64,000 bases of DNA from Rhizophagus irregularis (Eukaryota). The first letter of the stretch is position 1. Every line of letters begins with the position of its first letter. Of this stretch, positions 39,310 to 58,100 are shown one piece after another. The position numbers were made by a program, and so were the translations under genes. The notes under the pieces are model-generated. The model was not told where the DNA came from, made no database searches, and saw only the letters and a program-made list of their open reading frames with translations. The DNA lies in contig NC_089430.1 in the NCBI RefSeq assembly GCF_026210795.1, forward strand, positions 1,302,001-1,366,000, written 5' to 3'.

Positions 39310-40931
39310 ATGGATAAAATTAAACTAAGTGATGATGTATTTGAACGAATAAAAGATTTTGTCAATTGGAATTTGACTAAAGAACAAAATTCATTAATTG
39401 ATAAACTAATAACAGACGAAAAATTAAAAGAACTTTATAAAGAACATGGTTTATGTAAAGAATGTAAGCAGCCTAATACTAGTTATTATAGTTGTTGGCC
39501 ATGTATTTTACAACATTTTAAACAAAATTTCAAAAATTGGACAAGTGGAAATCATGATATTGATGAATTTATTAAAAAAGTACAATTAAAAGCTAAACAT
39601 GTAGATCAAATCGTAGAGTGGATTGAATATGATAAATTTGAAGATGTTGAATATTTAGCAAAAGGGGGATTTGGAACTACTTTTAAAGCAGTTTGGAAAG
39701 ATGGAGATATTCGTGGATATGATGATCAATGGAAAAGAAAAGGTGAAACAAAAGTTGCTTTAAAATGTTTATATAATTCACAAGAAATTACAGCAGATTT
39801 TTTAAAAGAAGTAAGATATTTTCTTATGAATCTTCATTAGTCTTTATAAATATTAAACTAACTATAATTTTATTTTAAGATTGAATCAAATATTTTAGTA
39901 TATTCTTCTGGTTGGACAGTTCGTTGTTTTGGTATTACCAAAGATCCAAAAACAAATAATTTTATGATGGTAATGGAATTAAAAGATGGTAATTTAAGAC
40001 AACATTTAAATAATAATTTCATTTCGCTGAGTTGGGACCAAAAATTGTGGAGTTTACAAAGTATTGCAAATGGTCTTAAAGATATTCATAATAAAGGATT
40101 AATCCATCATGATTTTCATTGTGGGAATATATTAAGTAATTTTGGTCAAAAAGCTTTTATTACCGATTTAGGATTATGTCAACCAGCAAATGCCAAATCC
40201 TCTCAAAATAGTAATAAAGAAATATATGGAGTATTACCTTATGTAGCACCAGAAGTTTTAAGAGGAAAAGAATATACACAAGCAAGTGACATTTATGGAT
40301 ATGGAATTATTGCATATGAAATTTGTACAGGTTTCCCTCCTTATTATGATATGGCTCATGATGAATTCTTAACAATGAAAATTTGCAATGGGCTGAGGCC
40401 AAAATCCAATTATAAAATTCCTCAATTAATTTTTGACATCATTAATCAATGTTGGGATGCTGACCCTTTAAAACGACCTAATGCGGGTGAATTGCAAGAA
40501 TTAACATATAAATTATATAATGATGTCTTTAAAGTGGATTCTGTAATTTATGGACAAGTTAAAGAAACAGATGATATTAATAAAAAGTTATTGTCTTCAA
40601 TAGTTCAATCACCATCATCATCTACCAGTAATCTCTTATATACAACACATCCTCAAGCAGTTTATACAAGTAGACTTTTGGATTTTAAAAATCTTCCAGA
40701 ATCCAAAAATGTGGACAATGATGATTTAGAATATTCAGGTAATTTTAATTAAAAATAATTATTTAAATCTATTTAGAGTAATAATAATTATTCTTTTATT
40801 TTACAGTTTCCTTAAAAATGGATTTTACTAAACTTGATATTAATTCTAAAGGTAATTTCTTTGTATGTGATTTTTTGATTTATTAAATTTTAATTAAGCT
40901 ATTTTTTTTTGTTATAGATGAAGGAAATTAA
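39310..40931 (+). CDS. Protein kinase (tyrosine-kinase-like type expanded in Glomeromycotina); exons 39310-39810, 39880-40738, 40807-40851, 40918-40931
   Basis: AKGGFG, VALK, HHDFHCGNIL, TDLG, LPYVAPE motifs; N-terminal CKEC..CWPC and NFKNWTSGN..ID.FI..WIEY; HPQAVYTSRLLDF tail; all introns GT-AG and in phase. Confidence 0.92.
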
Positions 40932-42849
40932 AACCCATTTACTTTAATTGAAAATATTTAGTATATAAAAAAAAAGCATATCAGATATAATTTTATCTTG
41001 AACTTGAGGATATTTTTTATTATTCAGTTATTTTGGAACATTTTGGTGGAAATATAGTAAACTGAAACTCAATTTATTTAATAAAAAAAAAAAAATTTTT
41101 AAAATTTACTACAATGTTAATCTCCAAATATGAATATAGATAACATATTATATTAAATTATCTAAAATATTAATAAGTATTATGGTGAATAACTAAGTTT
41201 AACGTAAAAATTACTTTTCTGTGACATCTTTATTACGTTAGAAAACACCCACAGACCCACTAGTGGCTTAATAAATTATTTTGTATGTACGTTATATAAG
41301 AATGATTCTAAATAAATTGTAGATTATTGCGAAATAAAAAATTATTCTTTGATACGTTCTTTATAATAGAAAGTATTGGCTTTTTATTTTAGAAGTTTGA
41401 ACCGATTAACATTAATAGATGATTAATATGGTTATCCAGTTTGGGCATCTCAAAAATCGGTTAATCGATTAAAATTAATGATGCAATCCAAAAATGATGA
41501 AATTTCGGTCACATATTCTCCAAACTCTAATTTTAACAAATGGATTTTTTTATTAATGTTTTAATAATAAAATTAATTAAATATGGCTTCATGCAACTAG
41601 TTATATGAATAAAAACAAATTGGTACAATCTACAGCCAAAAAATTTTTTTAATATTTTTTATAATCGATTATAGATTATAAAACGTACACAATCATATTG
41701 ACTTATATAACCTTTAATGCATTATACATTAATAAAACTAGAATCAAACAAGGTTTATACCCGACCAAAAACAAAAACAATGCAAAGTATCTGTCAATCT
41801 TGATAAGTCTTCTTTGATGATCGATTTCGATGTGAAACTTGAATATGCAACTTTCTTAATTGACTATACTGTATCTCTTCACTCTCTTGATAGAATTACG
41901 ATTACTCTTAACTTTCGAAAAATTCACGAACCAATTTTCTTACAATGTTAATATTTCAAAGTAATAAAATTTTGTAAAAAGTGATCATATTATATAATAT
42001 TATGTTTTAATATTTTAAATAAATTTTGTTAATATACTTTTCCAGTTTCTAGCATACTTATTTTAATATTTTATACAAAGGAATAAAACATAATAAACCG
42101 CGTAAATATTAATGGATTAAGTAATATACCAAAAAATGGCAAAAATTATGTGTTATCTAAGTTTTTTTTATTAAAATATAAAATAAATAAAATGCATAAT
42201 CGCTTGAGAACTTGGATTTTTTTTTTCATCAGAAATCAAGGCAACTTGTTTTTAAATTAAATTCAATTTTGTCATATTATCTAAATTTCAATATTTTTTT
42301 TTAAAATTCAAAATTTAATCATTTATTATATTCAAATTCTGTTAAACTATGTCTTAAAGAGTAAATTATATTAGGATAGTACTGATTTGGAAGTTAATAT
42401 TATGACCTTAATAATAATGATTTTTTAAAAATAAAAATTAATAAAATAAATAAGAACGAGAAATTTTCTTTAAAGCAATATGTATCCGCCTCAATTCATG
42501 ACATCGATGATATTGATTTCATGTAATACATGCAGTTATCACATGATATTATAAAATATAAACTATTTTTATTGGATAATTATCTTAAAGGTAACATTAT
42601 TTGGCAACTGTCCCTATCACGTCAGTGACTTAATAAAAATTTTAATTGGCTGATTTTTCAATTTTGATCAGTTAATTTTTTTATTTCACAAAGAATATTT
42701 TATTTGCGGTAAAATTTTATTTGTTAAATACAATATTAAAACTATAAAATTATACACTTGTGGATTTAAAAATTATTTTATTGGTTATGTTTCATTGATT
42801 AGAGAAATAAAAATTAACGAATTTATTTTGAGAAACTTAACAATAATGG

Positions 42850-43500
42850 TAAGAAATAAATAGTGATAAAAAAAAGAAAAATTGCAATGATAAAATGAGA
42901 AAAATGCCAATAAAAAGCAAAAAAGGAAATAAGAAGATATAACGTTAATAATAGTGAAAGAAAAAAAGGAAACAAAAAGAAATGATGTGGATGGGATGAA
43001 AAGAAAAGTAATGAAAAAAAGTGTAAAAAGGATAAAAGGAAGTGTAAAAAGATGATAAGGTGAAAGGAAAGTGAAAGGGAAATAAAAAAGAAGTGAAAAG
43101 GGTGATAGAAGATGAAAAAAAAGTGAGAAAGAAAATAGTAAACAAAAAGGAAGGATGATAGGAGACGAAAAAGAAGTAAAAAGGATGATGATGAACAAAG
43201 GGAAGTGAGAAGGAAGTGTAAAGGGTGATAGGGGAAGAAAAGTAAGAGAGAATAATAATGAAAAATAAAAAAAATAAAGGATGATGGAGAATAAAAAAGA
43301 AGTAAAAAGGAGAAGGAAATAAAAAAATAAAGGGCAAAAAAGAAGTGAAAAGAATGATAGAAGACGAAAAAAAGTGAAGAAAAAACAATCAAGAACACCA
43401 CTCATAAAAAAAGGAATAAAGAAAAGACTGATTAGTATTATTTCAAAATAAAGTGAAAAAGTAATAAAAGCAAGAAACATATAAAAAGTAATAAAACAAG
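42850..43500. repeat. Purine-rich (A/G) low-complexity tract
   Basis: Nearly C-free A/G tract that generates F/L/S-rich spurious ORFs in all three minus frames. Confidence 0.8.
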
Positions 43501-43590
43501 AAAGAAATACCTCAAATAAAAAGAAGCCATCCCATTATTTCAGGAAAAAAATAAAGTTAGCGTTAGTAATAAAGTAAAGAGTAATTAAAT

Positions 43591-43984
43591 TAGAGGTTGG
43601 AACTGGTTAAGCTTAACCGGTTAATTAACCGGTTAAAATGCTGAAAATATTTGTAATTCTGGCCAAATTTACAGTGCCGGCCAGAATTATAAATCACGGG
43701 ACTTCGGAAAAAAGTTTAGCCACTAGGTAAGATATCAACGGACCATTCGGACCAAGTGGTGAAATTTTTGTGTTATATAAAATTCATAATGCGGGTCGAA
43801 ATCCATAGTGCCGGCCAGAAATTTTGGCCTGAATTTCGTCTTTCAGCTAGAGTTTCGTTTCGATAGTTAGAGTTTTGGTCTGGCCTAATTTTGGCCGGGA
43901 TTAAAAAATATATTTGATGCTAATCCTGGCCGAATTTTAATGCGGACTAGGATCGAGTTTTAACCGGTTAATTAACCGGTTAAG
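43591..43984. mobile_element. MITE-like remnant with palindromic inverted ends
   Basis: CTTAACCGGTTAATTAACCGGTTAAAA at 43612-43638 and its reverse complement ending at 43984; internal GCCGGCCAGAA repeats; no TSD identified. Confidence 0.55.
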
Positions 43985-44553
43985 ATTTTAAGACTTTTTT
44001 AAATACAACAAAATAATGGAAAAACCAAAAAAATAAAGTCATATTCAAGTCGAAATAGCACTGCAATAAAAAAAAACAAACATTTATCAAATGACGCGAT
44101 GATCATGTTTGTGTAGCAAATCAGAAAATATTAAATTTATTACATAATCAGGGGTCGCCAATTACATTTTAATATAAAAAAAAAATAAAAATTTGAATTT
44201 GTAATTTACGTAATTTACTGACCTGACCAGAATATGAAAACTGAATTTATAACTTCGTATTGCCTTACGTATTAAGAAATTTTTTTTGTTTTATTTGTTT
44301 TATGAATTTTGCTGTGCAACAATGTGGCTTGATGACTTTGATAATTGACATACGTTTTAGACATATATGCAAAATTTGTTTGTTATACATACTTGTACTT
44401 ATGATCAATGCTTTTGAGCATAATGCATTTTGCATAAATATTATTACCATATATACCTATACTAATAAAGGCGTTTAATAATAAAATAAAGAAAACAAAG
44501 ATATTTACATTATCTTTTCCAGTCAGAAAGAATTTTAATATAATTATATAGTA

Positions 44554-47500
44554 ATGGCTTATAGAGGTAATAATCATATATAATATAAACATTTAATACA
44601 GTTAGAATTCTAATATTTTTAAATAAATTTACAATATAATAAAACTGGTTTTTGGCAATATTGAATTTGAAGGAAGCAGTTCTGAAGAATTTGAAGGAGT
44701 TGGCTCTGAAGAATTTGAAGGAAGTAGCTCTGAGGAATTTGAGGAATCTAAAGGTATATTAAACATGCTAAAATACTAAATTTTTATTTGTAAATACATT
44801 TAAATATTATCTATAATTATACCTTATATAATATACAAATATAGCTCGTAAGTTAATAGGTTATCTTATAATTGAATAATGATAAATTACTCATCATTTT
44901 TATTACTTCATGTAATTAAATAATTCATTTAATGATTAATAATACTATAGTCAGTAAGTTATTAGTTATTTAAATTTTTAATTCTTTACTTTGTTTATTC
45001 TACATAATATTCAAATAACTAAATTTTTTATTTATAATTATTAATAATTAATTGTATTACAGATGGTAAGTTACAATATAATATTTATTTTGCTTAATAT
45101 TTTATATAACTCAACTAATTATATTCTTAATTTAAACAACTAGATTGTAAGTGATATATTTAATTTACAGTAAATATTTTTATATTATATTTATATTTAA
45201 CTAATAATTAATTATAATACTAGGGCGTAAGTTATAGATGTCTATATATCTATTATATCTATTATTTATATATTTTAAACTAACCAAATTCATTATTTAA
45301 AAAAATTATTTTGTAATTTATTTTAGTTCGTAAGTTATAAGTTATTTATTTAATTCTATTATTACTTATTGTTACATACAATATTTACATATATATTATA
45401 TAATTTAAACTAACTAAATTCTTTATTTGAAAATTATTTAATAATATAGGGAGTAAGTTATTTATTTAATTCTATTATTACTTATTATTATAATATTACA
45501 TATAATCTAAACTAATTAAATTCTTTATTTAAAAAATTATTTAATAATATAGAGAGTAAGTTATTTATTTAATTCTATTATTACTTATTGTTATAATATT
45601 TGCATATAATTTAAACTAACTAAATTCTTTATTTAAATAATTATTTTGTAATTTATTTTAGTTCGTAAGTTATAAGTTATTTATTTAATTCTATTATTAC
45701 TTATTGTTATTACATATAATTTAAACTAGTAATTAAATTCTTTATTTGAAAATTATTTAATAATATACTAGGGAGTAAGTTATTTATTTAATTCTATTAT
45801 TACTTATTATTATAATATTTACACATAATTTGAACTAATTAAATTCTTTATTAAAAAAATTATTTAATAATATAGAGAGTAAGTTATTTATTTAATTATA
45901 TTATTAGTACTTATTGCTATAATATTTACATATAATTTAAATTAACTAAATTTTTTATTTAAAAAATTATTTTTGTAATTTATTTTAGTTCGTAAGTTAT
46001 AAGTTATTTATTTAATTCTATTATTACTTATTGTTATAATATTTACATATAATTTAAATTAACTAAATTCTTTATTTATAAAATTATTTTATACATAGAT
46101 GGTAAGATTACACCACAACTAATGTAGGATGTCAGGAAAATAGATGTCAGGATTTTGTCTGACATTGATTTATTCAATTCTATCATTACTTATTGTTACG
46201 TTACAATACTTACATATAATTTAAACTAATTAATTCTTTATTTATAAATTATTTTATAGATGGTAAGTTATTTATTTAATTACTTATTGTTATAATATTT
46301 ACATATAATTTAAATTAACTAAATTCTTTATTTAAATAGATCGTAAGTTATAAGTTATTTATTTAATTCTATTTTACTTATTGTTATAATATTTACATAT
46401 TTAAACTAATTAATTATTTTGTAATTTCTTTTATTTCTTTTAGTTGGTAAGTTATAAGTTATTTATTTAATTCTATTATTACTTATTGTTATAATATTTA
46501 CATATAATTTAAACTAACTAAATTCTTTATTTATAAAATTATTTTATAGATGGTAAGTTATTTATTTAATTCTATTATTACTTGTTGTTATAATACTTAC
46601 ATATAATTTAAACTAACTAAATTCTTTATTTAAAAATTATTTAATAATATAGAGCGTAAGTTATTTATTTAATTCTATTATTACTTGTTGTTATAATATT
46701 TACATATAATTTAAACTAACTAAATTCTTTATTATTATTTTGTAATTTACTTTAGTTCGTAAGTTATAAATTATTTATTTAATTCTATTATTACTTATTG
46801 TTATAATATTTATATATAGTAATATAAACTAACTAAGTTCTTTATTTAAAAATTATTTAACAATATAGGGAGTAAGTTATTTATTTAATTCTATTATTGT
46901 TTATTGTTATAATATTTACATATAATTTAAACTAACTAAATTCTTTATTTAAAATAATTTTTTTAGTTGGTAAGTTATAAGTTATTTATTTTAGCTCTAT
47001 TATTACTTATTGTTATAACACTTACATATAATTTAAACTAACTAAATTCTTTATTTAAATAGATTGTAAGTTATAAGTAATTTATTTAATTCTATTATTA
47101 TTTATTGTTACAATATTTACATATAATTTGAACTAACTAAATTCTTTATTATTATTTTGTAATTTACTTAAGTTCGTAAGTTATAAGTTATTTATTTAAT
47201 TCTATTATTACTTATTGCTATAATATTTGCATATAGTATTTTAAACTAACTAAGTTCTTTATTTAAAAATTATAGGGTGTAAGTTATTTATTTAATTCTA
47301 CTATTATTTATTGTTATAATATTTACATATAATTTAAACTAAATAAATTCTTTATTTTAAAAAATTATTTATAGATGGTAAGTTATTTATTCAATTCTAT
47401 TATTACTTATTATTATAATATTTACATATAATTTAAATTAAATAAATTCTTTATTTTAAAAAATTATTTATAGATGGTAAGTTATTTATTTAATTCTATT

Positions 47501-50500
47501 ATTACTTATTATTATAGTATTTATATATAATTTAAACTAAAAAAATTCTTTATTTAAAATTATTTAATGATATAGATTGTAAGTTATTTATTTAATTCTA
47601 TTATTATTTATTGTTATAATATTTACATATAATCTAAACTCTTTATTTAAAAAATTATTTATAGATGGTAGCCTATTTATTTAATTCTACTATTACTTAT
47701 TGTTATAATATTTACGTATAATCTAAACTAACTAAATTTTTGATTCAAAAATTATTTATAGATGGTAAGTTATTTATTTAATTCTATTAGGTGCTGTCAG
47801 ATATTACCTAATATTTTAGGGGAGGGGGTAACTAAAGATCTTAGGTTACATACAAGACTATATAAGCAATTGTATATATAACATATCTTACCTAGGGGAG
47901 GGGGGTAAGCTCTTATATTAAAGTGATATTAGGTAATATCTGACATCTGACAGTGCCTTATTACTTATGTTATAATATTTATTATATTTACATATAATTT
48001 AAACCTAACTAATTCTTTACTTATAAAATTATTTTGTAATTTTTTTTTAGTTGGTAAGTTATAAGTTATTTATTTAATCTATTATTAATTGTTATAATAT
48101 TTACATATAATTTAAACTAAATAAATTCATTATTTTTATAGATGGTAAGTTATTTAATTAATTCTATTATTACTTATTGTTATAATATTTACATATAATT
48201 TAAACTAACTAAATTCTTTATTTAAAAAATTATTTAATAATACAGAGTGTAAGTTATTTATTTAATTCTATTATTATTTATTGTTGTAATATTTACATAT
48301 AATTTAAACTAACTAAATTCTTTATTTAAAAAAATTATTTATAGATGGTATGCTATTTATTTAATTCTATTGTTACTTATTATTATAATATTTACATATA
48401 ATTTAAACTAACACTTATAAAATTATTTAATAATATAGAGAGTAAGTTATTTATTTAATTCTATTATTACTTATTTATATAATATTTATATATATGTTAA
48501 ACTAATAAATTCTTTATTTAAAAAATTATTTAATAATATAGAGAGTAAGTTATTTATTTAATTCTATTATTACTTATTGTTATAATATTTGCATATAATT
48601 TAAACTAACTAAATTCTTTATTTAAATGATTATTTTGTAATTTATTTTAGTTCGTAAGTTATAAGTTATTTATTTAATTCTATTATTACTTATTGTTATT
48701 ACATATAATTTAAACTAATTAAATTCTTTATTTGAAAATTATTTAATAATATAGGGAGTAAGTTATTTATTTATTAATTCTATTATTACTTATAATTTTT
48801 ACATATAATTTAAGCTAACTGAATTCTTTTATTTAAAAAATTATTTAATAATATAGAGAGTAAGTTATTTATTTAATTCTATTATTACTTATTGGTATAA
48901 TATTTACATTTAATTTAAACTAACTAAATTCCTTATTTAAAAAAATTATTTAATAATATAGAGAGTAAGTTATTTATTTAATTCTAATATTACTTATTGT
49001 TATAATATTTGCATATAATTCAAACTAACTAAATTTTTGATTTAAAAATTATTTAATAATATAGGGAGTAAGTTATTTATTTAATTCTATTATTATTTAT
49101 TGTTATAATATTTACATATTATTTAAACTACAACTAAATTCTTTATTTAAAAAATTATTTTGTAATTTCTTTTAGTTGGTAAGTTATAAGTTATTTATTT
49201 AATTCTATTATTACTTATTGTTATAATATTTACATATAATCTAAACTAACTAAATTCTTTATTTAAGTAGATTGTAAGTTATAGTTATTTATTTAATTCT
49301 ATTATTACTTATTGTTATAATATTTGCACATAATTCAAACTAACTAAATTTTTAATTTAAAAATTATTTAATAATATAGGGAGTAAATTATTTATAAAAT
49401 TCTATTATTACTTATTGTTATAATATTTACATATGATTTAAACTAACTAAATTCTTTATTTAAAAAATTATTTTATAGATAGTAAGTTAGTTATTTAATT
49501 CTATTAGGTGCTGTCAGATATTACCTAATATTTTAGGGGGAGGGGGTAATTAAAGATCTTAGGTTACATACAAGACTATATAAGGAATTGTATATATAAC
49601 ATATTTTACTTAGGAGAGGGGGTAAGCTCTTATATTAAAGTGATATTCGGTAATATCTGACAGTGCTCTTATTACTTATTGTTATAATATTTACATATGA
49701 TTTAAACTAACTAAATCTTTTTTTAAAAAATTATTTTATAGATAGTAAATTATTTATTTAATTCTATTATTACTTGTTGTTATAATATTTTTATATAATT
49801 TAAACTAACTAAACTCTTTATTTAAATAGATCGTAAGTTATAAGTTATTTATTTAATTTATAATTTAAACTAACTAAATTCTTTATTTAAATAATTCTTT
49901 AATAATATAGGAAGTAAGTTATTTATTTAATCTTATTATTACTCATTGTCATAATATTTGCATATAATTTAAACTAACTAAATTCTTTATTTAAAAAATT
50001 ATTTAACAATACAGAGTGTAAGTTATTTATTTAATTCTATTATTACTTATTGTCATAATATTTGCATATAATTTAAACTAACTAAATTCTTTTAAAAAAT
50101 TATTTTGTAATGTTCTTTAGTTGGTAAGTTATTTATTTAATTCTATTGTTATTTATTGTTGTGATATTTACATATAATTTAAACTAACTAAATTCTTTAT
50201 TTAATAAATTATTTTTTAGATAGTAAGTTATTTATTTAATTCTATTATTACTTATTGTTATAATATTTACATATAATTTAAACTAAATAATTTCTTTATT
50301 TAAAAAATCATTTTGTAATTTCTTTTAGTTAGTAAGTTATAAGTTATTTATTTAATTCTGCTATTATATTTGTTATAATATTTACATATAATTTAAACTA
50401 ACTAAATTCTTTATTTAAAAATTATTTAATAATATAGAAAGTAAGTTATTTATTTATTAATTCTATTATTACTTATAATTTTTACATATAATTTAAGCTA

Positions 50501-53500
50501 ACTGAATTCTTTTATTTAAAAAATTATTTAATAATATAGAGAGTAAGTTATTTATTTAATTCTATTATTACTTATTGGTATAATATTTACATTTAATTTA
50601 AACTAACTAAATTCCTTATTTAAAAAAATTATTTAATAATATAGAGAGTAAGTTATTTATTTAATTCTAATATTACTTATTGTTATAATATTTGCATATA
50701 ATTCAAACTAACTAAATTTTTGATTTAAAAATTATTTAATAATATAGGGAGTAAGTTATTTATTTAATTCTATTATTATTTATTGTTATAATATTTACAT
50801 ATTATTTAAACTACAACTAAATTCTTTATTTAAAAAATTATTTTGTAATTTCTTTTAGTTGGTAAGTTATAAGTTATTTATTTAATTCTATTATTACTTA
50901 TTGTTATAATATTTACATATAATCTAAACTAACTAAATTCTTTATTTAAGTAGATTGTAAGTTATAGTTATTTATTTAATTCTATTATTACTTATTGTTA
51001 TAATATTTGCACATAATTCAAACTAACTAAATTTTTAATTTAAAAATTATTTAATAATATAGGGAGTAAATTATTTATAAAATTCTATTATTACTTATTG
51101 TTATAATATTTACATATGATTTAAACTAACTAAATTCTTTATTTAAAAAATTATTTTATAGATAGTAAGTTAGTTATTTAATTCTATTAGGTGCTGTCAG
51201 ATATTACCTAATATTTTAGGGGGAGGGGGTAATTAAAGATCTTAGGTTACATACAAGACTATATAAGGAATTGTATATATAACATATTTTACTTAGGAGA
51301 GGGGGGTAAGCTCTTATATTAAAGTGATATTCGGTAATATCTGACAGTGCTCTTATTACTTATTGTTATAATATTTACATATGATTTAAACTAACTAAAT
51401 CTTTTTTTAAAAAATTATTTTATAGATAGTAAATTATTTATTTAATTCTATTATTACTTGTTGTTATAATATTTTTATATAATTTAAACTAACTAAACTC
51501 TTTATTTAAATAGATCGTAAGTTATAAGTTATTTATTTAATTTATAATTTAAACTAACTAAATTCTTTATTTAAATAATTCTTTAATAATATAGGAAGTA
51601 AGTTATTTATTTAATCTTATTATTACTCATTGTCATAATATTTGCATATAATTTAAACTAACTAAATTCTTTATTTAAAAAATTATTTAACAATACAGAG
51701 TGTAAGTTATTTATTTAATTCTATTATTACTTATTGTCATAATATTTGCATATAATTTAAACTAACTAAATTCTTTTAAAAAATTATTTTGTAATGTTCT
51801 TTAGTTGGTAAGTTATTTATTTAATTCTATTGTTATTTATTGTTGTGATATTTACATATAATTTAAACTAACTAAATTCTTTATTTAATAAATTATTTTT
51901 TAGATAGTAAGTTATTTATTTAATTCTATTATTACTTATTGTTATAATATTTACATATAATTTAAACTAAATAATTTCTTTATTTAAAAAATCATTTTGT
52001 AATTTCTTTTAGTTAGTAAGTTATAAGTTATTTATTTAATTCTGCTATTATATTTGTTATAATATTTACATATAATTTAAACTAACTAAATTCTTTATTT
52101 AAAAATTATTTAATAATATAGAAAGTAAGTTATTTATTTATTAATTCTATTATTACTTATAATTTTTACATATAATTTAAGCTAACTGAATTCTTTTATT
52201 TAAAAAATTATTTAATAATATAGAGAGTAAGTTATTTATTTAATTCTATTATTACTTATTGGTATAATATTTACATTTAATTTAAACTAACTAAATTCCT
52301 TATTTAAAAAAATTATTTAATAATATAGAGAGTAAGTTATTTATTTAATTCTATTATTACTTATTATCATAATATTTGCATATAATTTAATCAAACTTAA
52401 TTATTTATTTAAAAATCATTTTATAATTTCTTTTAGTTGGTAAGCTATAAGTTATTTATTTAATTCTATTATAACTTATTTTCATAATATTTACATATAA
52501 TTTAAACTAACTAAATTCTTTATTTAAAAATACAGAGAGTAAGTTATTTACTTAATTCTATTATTACTTATTTTATAATATTTGCATATAATTTTAAACT
52601 AACTAAATTCTTTATTTAAAAAATTATTTTAATAATATAGAGAGTAAGTTATTTATTTAATTCTATTATTATTTATTGTTATAATATTTACATAAAATTT
52701 AAATTAACTAAATTCTTTATTTAAAAAAATATAGATGGTAGGTTATTTATTTAATTCTATTATTACTTTATTTACATATAATTTAAACTAATTAAATTCT
52801 TTATTTAAAAAATTATTTAATAATGTACTAGAAAGTAAGTTATTTATTTAATTCTATTATTATTTAATGTTATAATATTTACATATTATTTAAACTACTA
52901 ACTAAACACTTTATTTAAAAATTATTTTGTAATTTCTTTTAGTTGGTAAGTTATTTATTTAATTCTATTGTTGCTTATTGTTATAATACTTACATATAAT
53001 TCAAATTAACTAAATTTTTTATTTAAAAAATTATTTTGTAATTTCTTTTAGTTAGTAAGTTATAAGTTATTTATTTAATTCTATTATTACTTATTGTTAT
53101 AATATTACATATGATTTAAACTAACTAAATTCTTTATTTAAAAAATTATTTTGTAATTTCTTTTAGTTGGTAAGTTATAAGTTATTTATTTAATTCTATT
53201 ATTACTTATTGTTATAATATTTACATATTATTTATTAAACTATTAACTAAATTCTTTATTTATAAAATTATTTTATAGAGAGTAAGTTACTTATTTAATT
53301 CTATTATTACTTAATGTTATAATACTTACATATAATTTAAACTAACTAAATTTTTTGTTAAATAAATTATTTTTTAGATAGTAAGTTATTTATTTAATTC
53401 TATTATTACTTATTTTTATAATATTTACATATAATTTAAACTAACTAAATTATTTATCTATAAAATTATTTAATAATATAGCTTGTAAGTTATTTGTTTT

Positions 53501-55102
53501 TTCTATTGTTATATACTTTATAAATATTTATTGTTAATTGAATTATATTTATATAAAAATAAAATTTCTATTACTTTAGCTGGTAAGTTGTGAAATATAG
53601 GTTATTATTATATACATTTGTACAAAAACTAAGACATTTATTATTAAATTTCTATTTAAATTTTAGCGTAAGTGTTGATTTTAATCTTAAATTTTAGTGT
53701 AATTTTTAATATAAAACTTCAATATTAATTTTAATTGTTAAATTTATATATAGATATGAAAAAAGTGGAGATGCAATTATGGATAATTTTATTTTGGAAA
53801 ATAAATTAAAATGGTTTCCTTATGATGAATTTGAAAATGTTGAATATCTTGATAAAGGAGGATTTGGTACTATATACAAAGCTATTTATAAATATAATAA
53901 AGTAGTTCTTAAATGTCATAATAATTTATTAAGTGAAAATTTAAATGAATTTTTAAATGAAGTATGATAATCATATATTATTTATTTTTTTAATTTGATT
54001 TATGCTTTATTTATATTAATATGTATTATTACTTTTTTATAGTGGGAATATCATAAAAGTTGTTTAAGTTCACATGATATTATTTATTTTTATGGGTTTA
54101 CAAAAGACCCAGATACTTTAAAATATATGGTAGTAATGGATTATGCAAATAAAGGTAATTTAAGAGGAAACTTAACAAGAATAATCAAAAGAGGTTGGAA
54201 TAAAAAATTATATATGTTATTTGGAATTATTTCTGGACTTAATGATATACATAAACAAAATCTTATTCATTGTGATATTCATGATGGCAATATTTTAAAT
54301 CATAATGAAAGTAAAGTTTATATTAGTGATTTAGGATTATGTAAACCTTTAAAATCATTTTTGAAAAAATATGATATTTATGGTGTTATACCATTTATGG
54401 CACCAGAAGTTTTAAGAGGCAATTCTTATACTCCGGCTAGTGATATATATAGTTTTTCTATGATTATGTGGGAATTTATTTCTGGGGTACCACCATTTAA
54501 TAATAGAGCACATGATTTACAACTTAGTTTAAGTATTTGTGAAGGTGAACGTCCTGAAATTATTGAAAATACTCCACAATGTTATGTAGATTTGATGAAA
54601 AAGTGTTGGGATGAAAACCCATTAAAAAGGCCATCTTCTAAAGAAGTGTTGAATATTATTAAAGCATGGATTTTTCGTCCAGATAATGTGTTTGTTGAAT
54701 ATATTAATGAAGAATTAAAATGCAATATTATTGAATTTATAAATGCGCCAATTGGGCATAACAATAATCTTGCTACTGAATCTCATCCACAAGCATGTTA
54801 TACAAGTCGCTTACTTGATTTTACTAGTAGACAGTTGAATGAAAATCTTGAAAGTAGAAATTCACAAGCTTTTTATTCAATTCAATCTACTAGTGAAAAA
54901 GTGAATGAAGAAAGTGAAGATTCACAAGCTAGTGTAAAAGTGAATGAAATGCTAGTAAGTAAAAATTTGGATGATTGCATATTTGATTTGAAGTCATTAG
55001 GTATGTAGTATAATATATGAAAAGAATTAATTTTGCAAATTATTTATTGTAAATTAAGTTTATTTATTTGATTATTTAGATATTAAAGCAGATAAAAAAT
55101 AA
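44554..55102 (+). CDS. Protein kinase with an N-terminal region encoded by 81 three-nt microexons plus one 1-nt exon (~88 exons in total)
   Basis: Exon 1 44554-44566 (MAYR+G); acidic exon to 44753 (EFEGSSSEEFEGVGSEEFEGSSSEEFEESK, phase 1); microexons 44845-53582; 1-nt exon 53667; kinase exons 53754-53961, 54043-55000, 55080-55102 (KGGFG, VVLK, HCDIHDGNIL, SDLG, PFMAPE, HPQACYTSRLLDF). The kinase part is secure; the 5' model is inferred from splice signals and frame closure. Confidence 0.8.
47790..47957. mobile_element. MITE with TTA TSD (PIF/Harbinger, Tourist-like) in an array intron, copy 1
   Basis: Ends GGTGCTGTCAGATATTACC / ...CTGACAGTGCC; inserted in ATTCTA-TTA-TTACTTA with TTA duplicated. 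Confidence 0.8.
49507..49668. mobile_element. Same MITE, copy 2
   Basis: Same sequence, same position within the intron unit, TTA on both sides. Confidence 0.8.
51190..51352. mobile_element. Same MITE, copy 3
   Basis: Near-identical to copy 2, 1683 bp downstream (part of a higher-order duplication). Confidence 0.8.
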
Positions 55103-58100
55103 CTAGTAATTATTTGTGTTTTTAAAAGAATTTATAGTTATTTCGTAAGTGATATTTGATGTCATACATTGAACAGAAATTGTTATTTAGATTTATTTAA
55201 ACACTAAGGCTAGTAAAATATTTTACAATATTCTTAGTTTGTAATTTAAATAATTCTTTTTTTTTATGTTCTATTCATACATGTATTCTCTTTTTTTTAG
55301 AATTATTTTAAACACTAAGGTTAGAGTAGTAAATATTTTACGAATTTCTTAGTTTGTAATTTAAATAATTCTTTTTTTTTTTAACTTTTCCAATTATTAA
55401 ATATAAATTATCAAAATAATTCCAATGTATAAAATCAAAAATAAATAATGTAAAATTTTTTATATTCATTTCAATGGCTAATTGTATTTTATTTATATTG
55501 TTAAAACCTGCAAAAATATTCTTTATTTATTTAAGAAATTATTTTATTAAGATGACATTATACATAATTATTTTAACTTTATAATAAGCATTGACAGGTA
55601 GTCCAATGGTCAAATTGTAAAATATTTATTAGAAATTTTTTGTTTATAGCATTTGTTAACATTTCCTGATAAATATTTATATGGAAAATATCCAGCATGT
55701 CTAAGTGTTAATTTTACACAGAAAGTTGTCTTTGTCCTGTAAATAAATAATATTCTTAATAATCTTAACACCTTCACATTTGATAATTGATTTTTTAATT
55801 TATATCCTATAAAAAATTTTTATTACTGGTTGATTATATATACAAGTTTTTTGGATTAATATCCATGAAAATAATCATTTACAGTATTAGGCTTTTTCTA
55901 GAAATAGGGATAATACAAATAATGTACCAACTAGTTGAGCTGACAAAAAATTTTTTCACTGACATCTAAAATTGAAAATATAATATTGAAAATATAATGC
56001 AAGTATATAATTATAATAACAATAGAAGTAAAGAAAGCTATAAGTATGGTGATATTAATTGAATTCTTAGTAATAATGATGAATTAATATATATCACGCA
56101 CATGATACAGTATTTAAATAAACAAGCTGCTATACTGGAACTCTTTCCGCCGATCATCATGTCCACAAATTCCAGGACGGAATAAAAGGTGGAAGAGTTC
56201 AAAAAGTGCCTAGTAGAAGTAGATTTTTAATGCATTTCACCATAACCAACTGTTTATTCACTTCTTTACGAACAATTGGATATAAGTTTTAGTGGGTGTT
56301 ACCTAATAGTTTTCTAATTTTTCACCCAACAATTTCTTCCTGTCAGCAAAAGGTGGCGACCCAAAAATAGGGCCAAGTAGGGCAAGACGTTGCTCCATAA
56401 GTTTTGATAGGAAGTGGTACAAAAGGTCGTGAAAATAAAAAAAAAAGATAAAAGGACTTTTGGATTTTTGTTTCTTGGGAATTTTCGCCAAAAATATTTT
56501 TCGGTCGGCACAGCAAAATTTTAGCACGCGATTAGAATCCAATTAGATCAATGAATGATAAGGTGATTTTTTTGTGACACGAAATATAGATCAGCAAAAA
56601 TTTTAGCGATCTTGGGAAAGCGCAGAAAGTCACGTGATTGGATTAATCTTATCCGCAGTTGCAGGTAAACCGTGAAAACCATAGATTCTATATAGAATTA
56701 ATTACCAGTGTTAGTCGGCTTGGGAAGTTAGATTTGTATGTTTTGGGGCATTTTTATTGTTATATTATATAGTTTTAGTATGTTTAGTTTATTTAGTTTG
56801 ATTAAGCCGTAACATATTTGCATATACGTGCGTAATGGTAGTTAAATACAAGAATTTTAGATAAAGCTGGTTACGTTAGTCATTACTTCGTTTTATTATA
56901 CGAAGATTTTGGCATGGAGAGGTTTAGTATAAACTAAATTTCAATGTATTTTTTGTATTTTAACATGTAATATATTCTTCTACATTTACTAGATAAAAAA
57001 TGCGTTTATCAATTAAAAAAAAACAATCTTCTATACTAATGTGAAATTTGAGTCACTATAGTAAATAGTAATGCATGTGATTTACAATTTTTAACGAAAT
57101 ACTTTTTTACTAAACAATAATAAAAGAAATATAAAAGAATTAATAAAGAAATGCAATCAATTTAAGAGTGAAATTAAATAAGATACACTCAAAGATCAAT
57201 GGTAGGATACATCAAAGGTTAAAGGGAGGGATATACTAAAGGTATTTATACCTAAAGGTCAAGAGCAAGATGCACACTACTAACAGGAGACCATATAAAA
57301 TTCCATCCTTGGAGTGAAAACTGATCTACAAGTCTAAAAAAATCCTTTAAGCTGATTTTTACAGAAAAAACATTAAACTATCCATTTCTATAGTCCAAGA
57401 CTCTTAGTTGATAGAAAATGGATGATAATATTCATATTTGATCTTAAGATGATAAAAAGAATTACAATGAGAAAAGAGAATATGTAATTTTATTTGAAAA
57501 CCTTTATAGTATATAAAAGATATGGTATTATTTTTTAAAAATCTTTCTTTCATTTTTGCAAAAGAAATAGAGAAATAAAAAATAAAATAAAATAACGATT
57601 TTACACTTTAAGCCAAAGAACCGAAAAATCGCTACGTTGATTAGTTGAATCAATTAAATATAGCGGAATATACACAATTAATTAATTTATTAAATATCAT
57701 TGAAAATAAAGATTCTTACCTTATTAATTAACTATTACTTATTAATATAAGTGGAACTTACCAATCAGCTGAGATAAGTTCAAACCACCCAATCCTAGAC
57801 CTTTAATATCAAAATTATATAATTATATATTTAGTAACCATATCACATTATCACATGTAGTATTTAGAATAACTTGTATTGATAAGACATTTTATTTTAT
57901 TAAAATTTTCCATTGATAGAATAATTTATTTTGAGGTAGGATGTGAGTGTGATATTGCATGTTTGCAATAATTAAAAAGCTTTTAAAAACTTTATGCATT
58001 TCATAGGCTAGGTTTCACACTTTGTATTTTTGCGATATATTAAACTAAGAAAGACCTTTTGATCTAATAATATGTAAATTATATTAGTTGATACGTAGTC

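Follow-up and report, generated by a model that had tools for sequence, protein, structure and literature searches.

In a 64,000-nucleotide stretch of the Rhizophagus irregularis genome (contig NC_089430.1, positions 1,302,001 to 1,366,000 of the forward strand; hereafter the window), 81 predicted exons of three bases each and 80 intron-like units alternate in an 8.7-kb array, which lies between an acidic first exon and the exons of a protein kinase. The anatomy of this array, its position at an exon junction common to the kinase family, the closure of the reading frame across it, and the same layout in most related loci are direct observations. With moderate confidence, we regard the array as a genuine chain of codon-sized exons and short introns, which are removed singly and have multiplied by tandem duplication; the copy in the window would be over-expanded and is perhaps not translated in its long form.

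Anatomy and proposed growth of the array

The junction pattern AG-NNN-GT[AG]A[GA] was counted across the whole window and gave 95 matches, 79 of them within 44845–53580 and 14 outside 44500–55200. One of the 79, at 49619, falls in an insertion resembling a miniature inverted-repeat transposable element (MITE) and was dropped from the triplet count, while three junctions with variant donors were added (GTAGC at 47665, GTATG at 48345, and GTAGG at 52735). This gives a total of 81 triplets between 44845 and 53582, all of which (81/81) read AG, three bases, GT. They form a run of consecutive putative three-base exons, each with a full acceptor and a full donor, as expected of a codon-sized microexon array. 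The list of triplets in an earlier note on this DNA, each flanked by AG and GT and given in order, was reproduced exactly. The features of the predicted gene are as follows; public protein models are cited by P numbers, related metagenome loci by L numbers, and sequencing runs by X numbers.

44554..44580, plus strand: relic of the family start (ATG GCT ...) with a frame of only 9 codons; similar to P0012/P0016, which begin MAL..
44627..44753, plus strand: acidic first exon with 24-nt EFEG-type repeats, open without an ATG; Tandem Repeats Finder (TRF) period 24, 3.5 copies; located by tblastn
44754..44844, plus strand: first intron, a diverged edge unit (GTATAT...TAG), 60% like the core unit
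44845..53582, plus strand: array of 81 three-base exons and 80 intron units (GTAAGT...CTAAC-like...TAG)
53583..53666, plus strand: penultimate intron, 84 nt, diverged from the core unit
53667..53667, plus strand: predicted one-base exon (C), from frame arithmetic and conserved flanks
53668..53753, plus strand: last intron, 86 nt
53754..53961, plus strand: kinase exon 1 with glycine loop and VAIK-type lysine; its internal ATG at 53779 is the annotated start of the closest relatives
53962..54042, plus strand: intron between kinase exons 1 and 2; RNA joint 53961->54043, GT..AG, in reads that may be paralogous
54043..55000, plus strand: kinase exon 2, catalytic core; Pfam PF07714 (E 7e-34) and PF00069 (E 1.1e-32)
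55080..55102, plus strand: predicted short terminal exon with stop codon TAA; agrees with P0004, which ends in ..SLDIKTDKNN

Unit lengths range from 80 to 123 nt in 77 units, and the four longer units (161, 263, 264, and 289 nt) contain insertions, so that no junction has been lost. The complete gene model comprises 83 introns with a median length of 100 nt. Of these, 73 start with GTAAGT; the 3′ ends read TAG in 77, CAG in five, and AAG in one, and a CTRAY word is found 8–70 nt upstream of the 3′ end in 60 of the 83. In the unit alignment, two columns of a CTAAC-like block are invariant in 76 of 76 units. The G+C content of the array is 13.8% compared to 26.1% for the window, and TRF reports one tandem array at about 45.4–53.5 kb with periods of 99–105 nt and a higher-order period of 418 nt, at 70–80% matches and 11–13% indels. 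With these match rates and a mean pairwise identity of 78% among the intron units, the description of the introns as near-identical in the earlier note is overstated. No open reading frame (ORF) of at least 45 aa exists in the array on either strand, save at the first-exon edge and one within a MITE; the array is therefore not a conventional repeat protein. No Rfam family matched the region 43500–56000.

As the MAFFT unit alignment misplaced unit ends, the variability of triplets and of other offsets was determined from junction-anchored counts. The triplet is the most variable spot of the unit, occurring in 19 kinds compared to 1–15 different 3-mers at other offsets, and the last ~15 nt of the introns are nearly as variable. 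The spacer between acceptor and donor is constantly 3 nt despite frequent indels elsewhere in the array. Block duplication and diverged edges give the array satellite-like dynamics, while the family-wide phase logic described below argues for constraint. At 17 of the 81 junctions, the triplet (AGA, AGT, or AGC) opens with AG directly behind the acceptor AG; if this second AG, two bases downstream, served as the acceptor, the exon would shrink to one base and the frame would shift, a NAGNAG-like hazard or switch.

Divergence is concentrated at the ends of the chain: introns 1–6 and 81–83 are 60–73% like the core unit, and the core units 74–100%. Within the core, a block of 16 units has been duplicated, with 1583 of 1584 aligned columns identical between the two copies. 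A MITE-like element of ~165 nt is present in three copies, with no further ones in the window. Another insertion, of ~60 nt, is located at about 46110–46170.

49065..50647, plus strand: 16-unit segmental duplication, first copy
50748..52331, plus strand: 16-unit segmental duplication, second copy
47790..47957, strand not assigned: MITE-like insertion with ~20-nt inverted ends, within an intron unit
49507..49667, strand not assigned: MITE-like insertion, second copy, within an intron unit
51190..51351, strand not assigned: MITE-like insertion, third copy, carried by the 1.58-kb duplication

The divergence between edge and core, the block duplication, and the homogenized units would fit in-register tandem duplication with some homogenization. 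We envisage that the chain originated in a phase-1 intron and grew by in-register tandem duplication, or by unequal crossing-over, of an “intron plus codon” cassette, whereby each unit would add one codon.

A different origin would be a mobile intron, either an introner-like element or a transposon, that inserted repeatedly next to itself. The resemblance of units across loci could be read in this way, as the intron units of L005, L010, and L012 are 71–76% (best 83%) like the window units and about as similar to them as the window units are among themselves (78%), despite a protein identity of only 59–69% between the kinases. In L005, a 28-nt core around the branch-like CTAAC is identical to that of the window array. 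These common units may equally reflect either homogenization of arrays between paralogs or constraint on the intron sequence. The unit core, however, has 57 matches in the window (0 expected), all on the plus strand and all within the array. Moreover, the units have neither terminal inverted repeats nor target duplications, neighboring triplets differ, unlike target-site duplications, and the 418-nt higher-order period as well as the block duplication indicate amplification in place. Near-identical copies dispersed in unrelated genes, which characterize introner-like elements, were not found in the window and the related kinase loci. Given that no copies of the unit core occur outside the array in the window, and that related units were seen only in the arrays of related kinases, the mobile intron was rejected, and we consider it highly improbable.

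Reading frame and the predicted one-base exon

A single base of a split codon closes the first exon ahead of the donor GTATAT, and another single base, at the start of kinase exon 1, completes a split codon. With one base on each side, a direct join of the two exons, or a join through the 81 triplets alone, misses the kinase frame. The frame closes only if the C at 53667 (TTTAG-C-GTAAGT) acts as a one-base exon between the introns of 84 and 86 nt; without it, a stop arises in kinase exon 1. One carried base, the 243 bases of the triplets, this one base, and one base of exon 1 add up to 82 codons with no stop. When spliced unit by unit, the triplets and the conserved one-base exon are thus predicted to spell an 82-residue linker, which is of low complexity and 51% charged. 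In this model, the array lies in frame inside the coding region, even though the start codon is missing in this copy. The stop-free 82-residue peptide that the earlier note had joined behind 44753 was obtained again. Its frame is open and reaches the kinase as claimed, but only by way of the C at 53667, which the note had used in its peptide and omitted from its list of exons.

Within the window, TAG-N-GTAAGT occurs solely at 53667. L001, L002, L005, and L009 have a predicted one-base exon at the same place, with no change in the TTTAG and GTAAGT flanks but with different enclosed bases (C, A, A, T, and A across the window and these four loci). By sequence, this has the features of a single-nucleotide exon: one base between AG and GT, needed for the frame and conserved in relatives. 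In L010 and L012, a four-base exon takes the place of the one-base exon, and in all loci of both kinds a single split-codon base opens kinase exon 1. In the 13 arrays of the other subfamily (“WTSGN” type), exon 1 starts with two split-codon bases and there is no extra exon. That one frame is closed in three different ways would be difficult to account for if the chain were not read through, or had not been so at least in the history of the family. A contig of the DNA run X15 also covers 53508–53709 with one difference; X15 is possibly the sample behind the window assembly and so not independent support.

The frame that straddles the junctions, composed of the last base of one triplet and the first two of the next, is the kinase frame and is stop-free in 20 of 20 arrays, whereas the next frame contains stops in all 20. 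For a shuffle test, the order of triplets was permuted within arrays 3000 times, with duplicated blocks counted once. Over the arrays, the kinase frame holds 0 stops compared to a shuffle mean of 3.5, and 1.5% of the shuffles reach 0.

In the mechanism that we propose, the fungal spliceosome would pair each near-consensus GTAAGT donor with the next TAG ~100 nt on, as in intron definition. Because three bases leave no room for two simultaneous spliceosomes, neighboring introns would probably be removed one after another. If a donor now and then paired with a later acceptor, codons would be lost without a frameshift.

The kinase family, its first exon, and its transcripts

Downstream of the array, the kinase is intact and displays the glycine loop and the catalytic HxD and APE motifs of the protein kinase superfamily. 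Its best database relatives are Rhizophagus irregularis kinases with 83–84% identity, and a model from R. diaphanus shares 90% identity along 74% of the query; the window's own gene is absent from the protein collection searched. The family is hugely expanded, with 1331 proteins at E ≤ 0.001. The closest models (P0001–P0004) begin at the Met corresponding to 53779, just where the earlier note had expected standard annotation to start the gene (~53779), and the kinase could still be made from this ATG. Further family members (P0012, P0015, P0016, P0042, and P0089) carry an acidic EFEG-repeat first exon ahead of the kinase. By tblastn, this exon was placed at 44648–44749 of the window (with the N-termini of P0012, P0016, P0122, P0089, and P0042), and the array therefore occupies the junction between the family's first exon and kinase exon 1. 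The same kind of first exon also heads P0122, a non-kinase (R. irregularis, DUF8211 protein), which suggests exon shuffling of an acidic module. A second kinase gene of the “WTSGN” subfamily is encoded at 39311–40000 (plus strand). Its N-terminus with a Cys-rich motif forms one continuous exon and no triplet array, so that array-bearing and array-free relatives lie 14 kb apart.

The earlier note had suggested a check of relatives for periodic AG-NNN-GTAAG arrays beside kinases, and such chains do recur. One scan of soil metagenome contigs yielded 80 related kinase loci, with both kinase exons matched in 53 and the start of exon 1 in 45. The survey of upstream sequence was limited to the 29 loci with at least 250 nt before exon 1 and used the junction pattern YAG-NNN-GTRAR. 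At least one junction precedes exon 1 in 26 of these 29 loci, and periodic chains of two or more units occur in 20, reaching up to 9–10 units and mostly ended by the contig edge. In 51 of the 53 two-exon loci, the kinase exon matches are separated by a gap of 60–642 nt, as genomic DNA would give. The 53 include no clear cDNA copy; L080 was matched in part, with a gap of ~6, and the exon matches of L067 are in the wrong order. Across relatives, linkers of between about 2 and 81 codons occur.

Triplets of this kind also seem to be threaded into public Rhizophagus gene models. The models P0012/P0127, P0042, P0123, P0016, and P0037 belong to the same kinase family with the same first exon, and their short or long linkers before kinase exon 1 resemble concatenated triplets, their exon structure being deduced from peptides. 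The N-terminus of P0123 aligns to the window linker in the straddling frame with a score of 41 (z 5.1), which 0 of 200 shuffles reach. Both P0012 and P0127 (PKY../GBC.. accession prefixes) have three extra residues between first exon and kinase, which, judged from the peptides, fits two triplets. P0037 (R. diaphanus) contains a long run read in frame 0 and skips kinase exon 1, a model that looks like a software compromise, and P0015 and P0089 read through an intron. Transcript-derived copies of nine public models were not found, as their clusters hold only NCBI/UniRef/EukProt records.

The earlier note had further proposed that variable skipping of three-base exons provides a repertoire of N-termini on a constant kinase, as in an immune-like or non-self sensor. 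By arithmetic, any subset of the triplets could be skipped without loss of the frame, with the split codons altered at every new joint; this arithmetic is the basis of the putative splice-level repertoire and sensor role. The huge expansion of the family and the triplet as the most variable position of the unit would suit such a generator of diversity, as would the nank (NACHT-ankyrin) genes of Tuber melanosporum, for which diversification by alternative microexon splicing is described (PMC4986451). On the other hand, the locus in the window has no start codon, and the low-complexity, highly charged linker gives no sign of a binding fold. Its range of lengths among relatives suits a spacer better than a recognition surface, and the 3′ tail of the intron, being about as variable as the triplet, points to mutation or recombination at the junction rather than to codon selection. 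We consider this role quite improbable.

Several observations, in the array and its relatives, at the start of the gene, and among RNA reads, weigh against a chain that is still spliced and read. Conservation within the units is not confined to splice signals, and many other intron columns match GT and AG in this respect. For the window array alone, 7.8% of the order shuffles are also stop-free. Moreover, frame 0 of the triplets is open as well, with 0 stop triplets among 135 compared to 5.0 expected from position frequencies, and translation of the straddling frame does not explain this. Descent from a few founder triplets (TTG, ATG, AGA, and GGA) may explain part of both open frames, and we therefore weight the phase logic above the stop counts. 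Frame 0, for its part, reads as a hydrophobic Gly/Leu/Ile/Met-rich peptide. Among the relatives, an in-frame TAA follows the L005 homolog of the acceptor at window 53753 (L005, 500–530); either an acceptor further on (ACTAG) is used at this locus, or L005 is a pseudogene. Dead units are found in L041, L050, and L002, and the relatives may be decaying. In L041 (380–400), a TAG triplet is followed by a donor mutated to TT; in L050 (890–900), an ATG triplet is followed by CT rather than GT; and in L002 (120–170), units have a weakened donor or acceptor. It seems that microexons, once lost, become part of the adjacent intron. The public gene models, too, may be software output without RNA support.

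At the start of the gene, the EFEG frame is closed by TAG at 44603 and TAA at 44624 and has no ATG in 44627–44753, while translation from the ATG at 44554 stops after 9 codons. No upstream coding exon with an ATG was found in 41500–44760. In this copy, no normal ATG is available as a start for the long protein. The idea in the earlier note that the gene continues from an upstream exon is thus borne out in part: the array lies at the family junction and the predicted frame closes, but the long frame lacks a usable ATG. Further upstream, at 43074–43311, lies a purine-rich tandem repeat with a period of 123 nt and 1.9 copies, overlapped by a Phe/Leu/Ser-rich minus-strand ORF of 231 aa that is probably spurious.

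Reads of three polyA runs (X21, X22, and X23) were mapped on 53480–55000 at 90% likeness, which placed 1492, 1624, and 1710 reads, respectively. Only 8, 12, and 14 of these reach at least 99% likeness and most show 90–95%, so that the reads stem mostly from paralogs. At 53770, the base of the paralogs is found in 18/18 (X21), 8/8 (X22), and 18/20 (X23) reads; the window's base is seen in 2 of the 20 reads of X23 and in none of X21 and X22. The joint between exons 1 and 2 (53961->54043) is present in 14, 19, and 16 reads, which may be paralogous. Depth over 53480–53734 is zero in X21 and X22 and about one read in X23, with about two X23 reads on 53582–53683. No loose end at 53754 appears among the mapped reads listed, and no locus-specific RNA read was found in X21, X22, or X23. 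The locus is very weakly expressed at best in these samples.

The array might hence be a dead satellite at this locus: the family layout would possibly be real, the array itself unread or removed wholesale, and the kinase, if expressed, produced from transcripts that begin shortly before 53754 and are translated from the ATG at 53779. The long frame without a start codon, the lack of locus-specific reads, the zero depth over 53480–53734 in X21 and X22, and the internal Met at which the closest annotated relatives begin all agree with this. The recent 1.58-kb duplication, the MITE insertions, and the homogenized core with diverged edges likewise resemble neutral satellites, and the largest arrays (81 units here; the long run in P0037) accompany disturbed first-exon frames. 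Nevertheless, none of the 81 junctions is damaged, the one-base exon is likewise intact, and no stop interrupts the 82-codon frame. The two or so X23 reads on 53582–53683 indicate that some transcription may cross the last introns, and removal of an 8.9-kb intron as a whole would be unusual, given a consensus donor and acceptor every 100 nt. We regard a dead satellite as possible but do not favor it. In the spliced chain that we prefer, the loss of the start codon and the lack of locus-specific RNA make the array likely to be a recently over-expanded copy, whose long form would be made weakly or not at all.

Comparison with known microexons and implications

The closest published case is that of the Tuber melanosporum nank genes, described as containing codon-sized microexons with diversification by alternative splicing (PMC4986451, referring to Iotti et al. 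2012, Fungal Biol 116:261). Common to both is the succession of several three-base exons within an expanded fungal gene family. In contrast to the ascomycete NACHT-ankyrin genes, the host here is a protein kinase (PF07714, PF00069) of a glomeromycotan, and the window, known from DNA alone, holds 81 units in one array together with a conserved one-base exon that closes the frame. For the latter, a counterpart is the single-nucleotide exon of Arabidopsis APC11, for which expression assays provided proof (Guo and Liu 2015, PMC4674806). There as well, one base between acceptor AG and donor GT is needed for the frame (PMC4674806), whereas the exon in the window is predicted, on the strength of frame arithmetic and of conserved flanks at five loci, and terminates a chain of three-base exons. 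Thus, the window array stands out from the known codon-sized microexon cases described in these sources by its size, its host family, and the conserved one-base exon. We found no literature on such arrays in Rhizophagus or arbuscular mycorrhizal fungi, in agreement with the earlier note, which knew of no report for Glomeromycotina kinases.

A more far-reaching proposal is that the linkers of this glomeromycotan kinase family are in general written one codon per exon, that selection keeps the frame while unequal crossing-over alters the length, and that combinatorial skipping yields many isoforms per locus in a multinucleate fungus, all of which would have arisen independently of the NLR-like case in Tuber. 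Taken as a whole, we deem this unlikely.

If spliced as predicted, the array would represent the longest known run of one-codon exons and contain a second natural one-base exon, and it would provide a stringent natural test of the spliceosome on exons too short for any exonic signal. As to genome annotation, the start of many public Rhizophagus kinase models has probably been placed too far downstream (the closest ones begin at an internal Met), and repeat maskers would hide real coding structure in such genomes. As the layout is common to most of the related loci from soil DNA, tandem duplication of “intron plus codon” may be a regular route of linker growth in the phylum.

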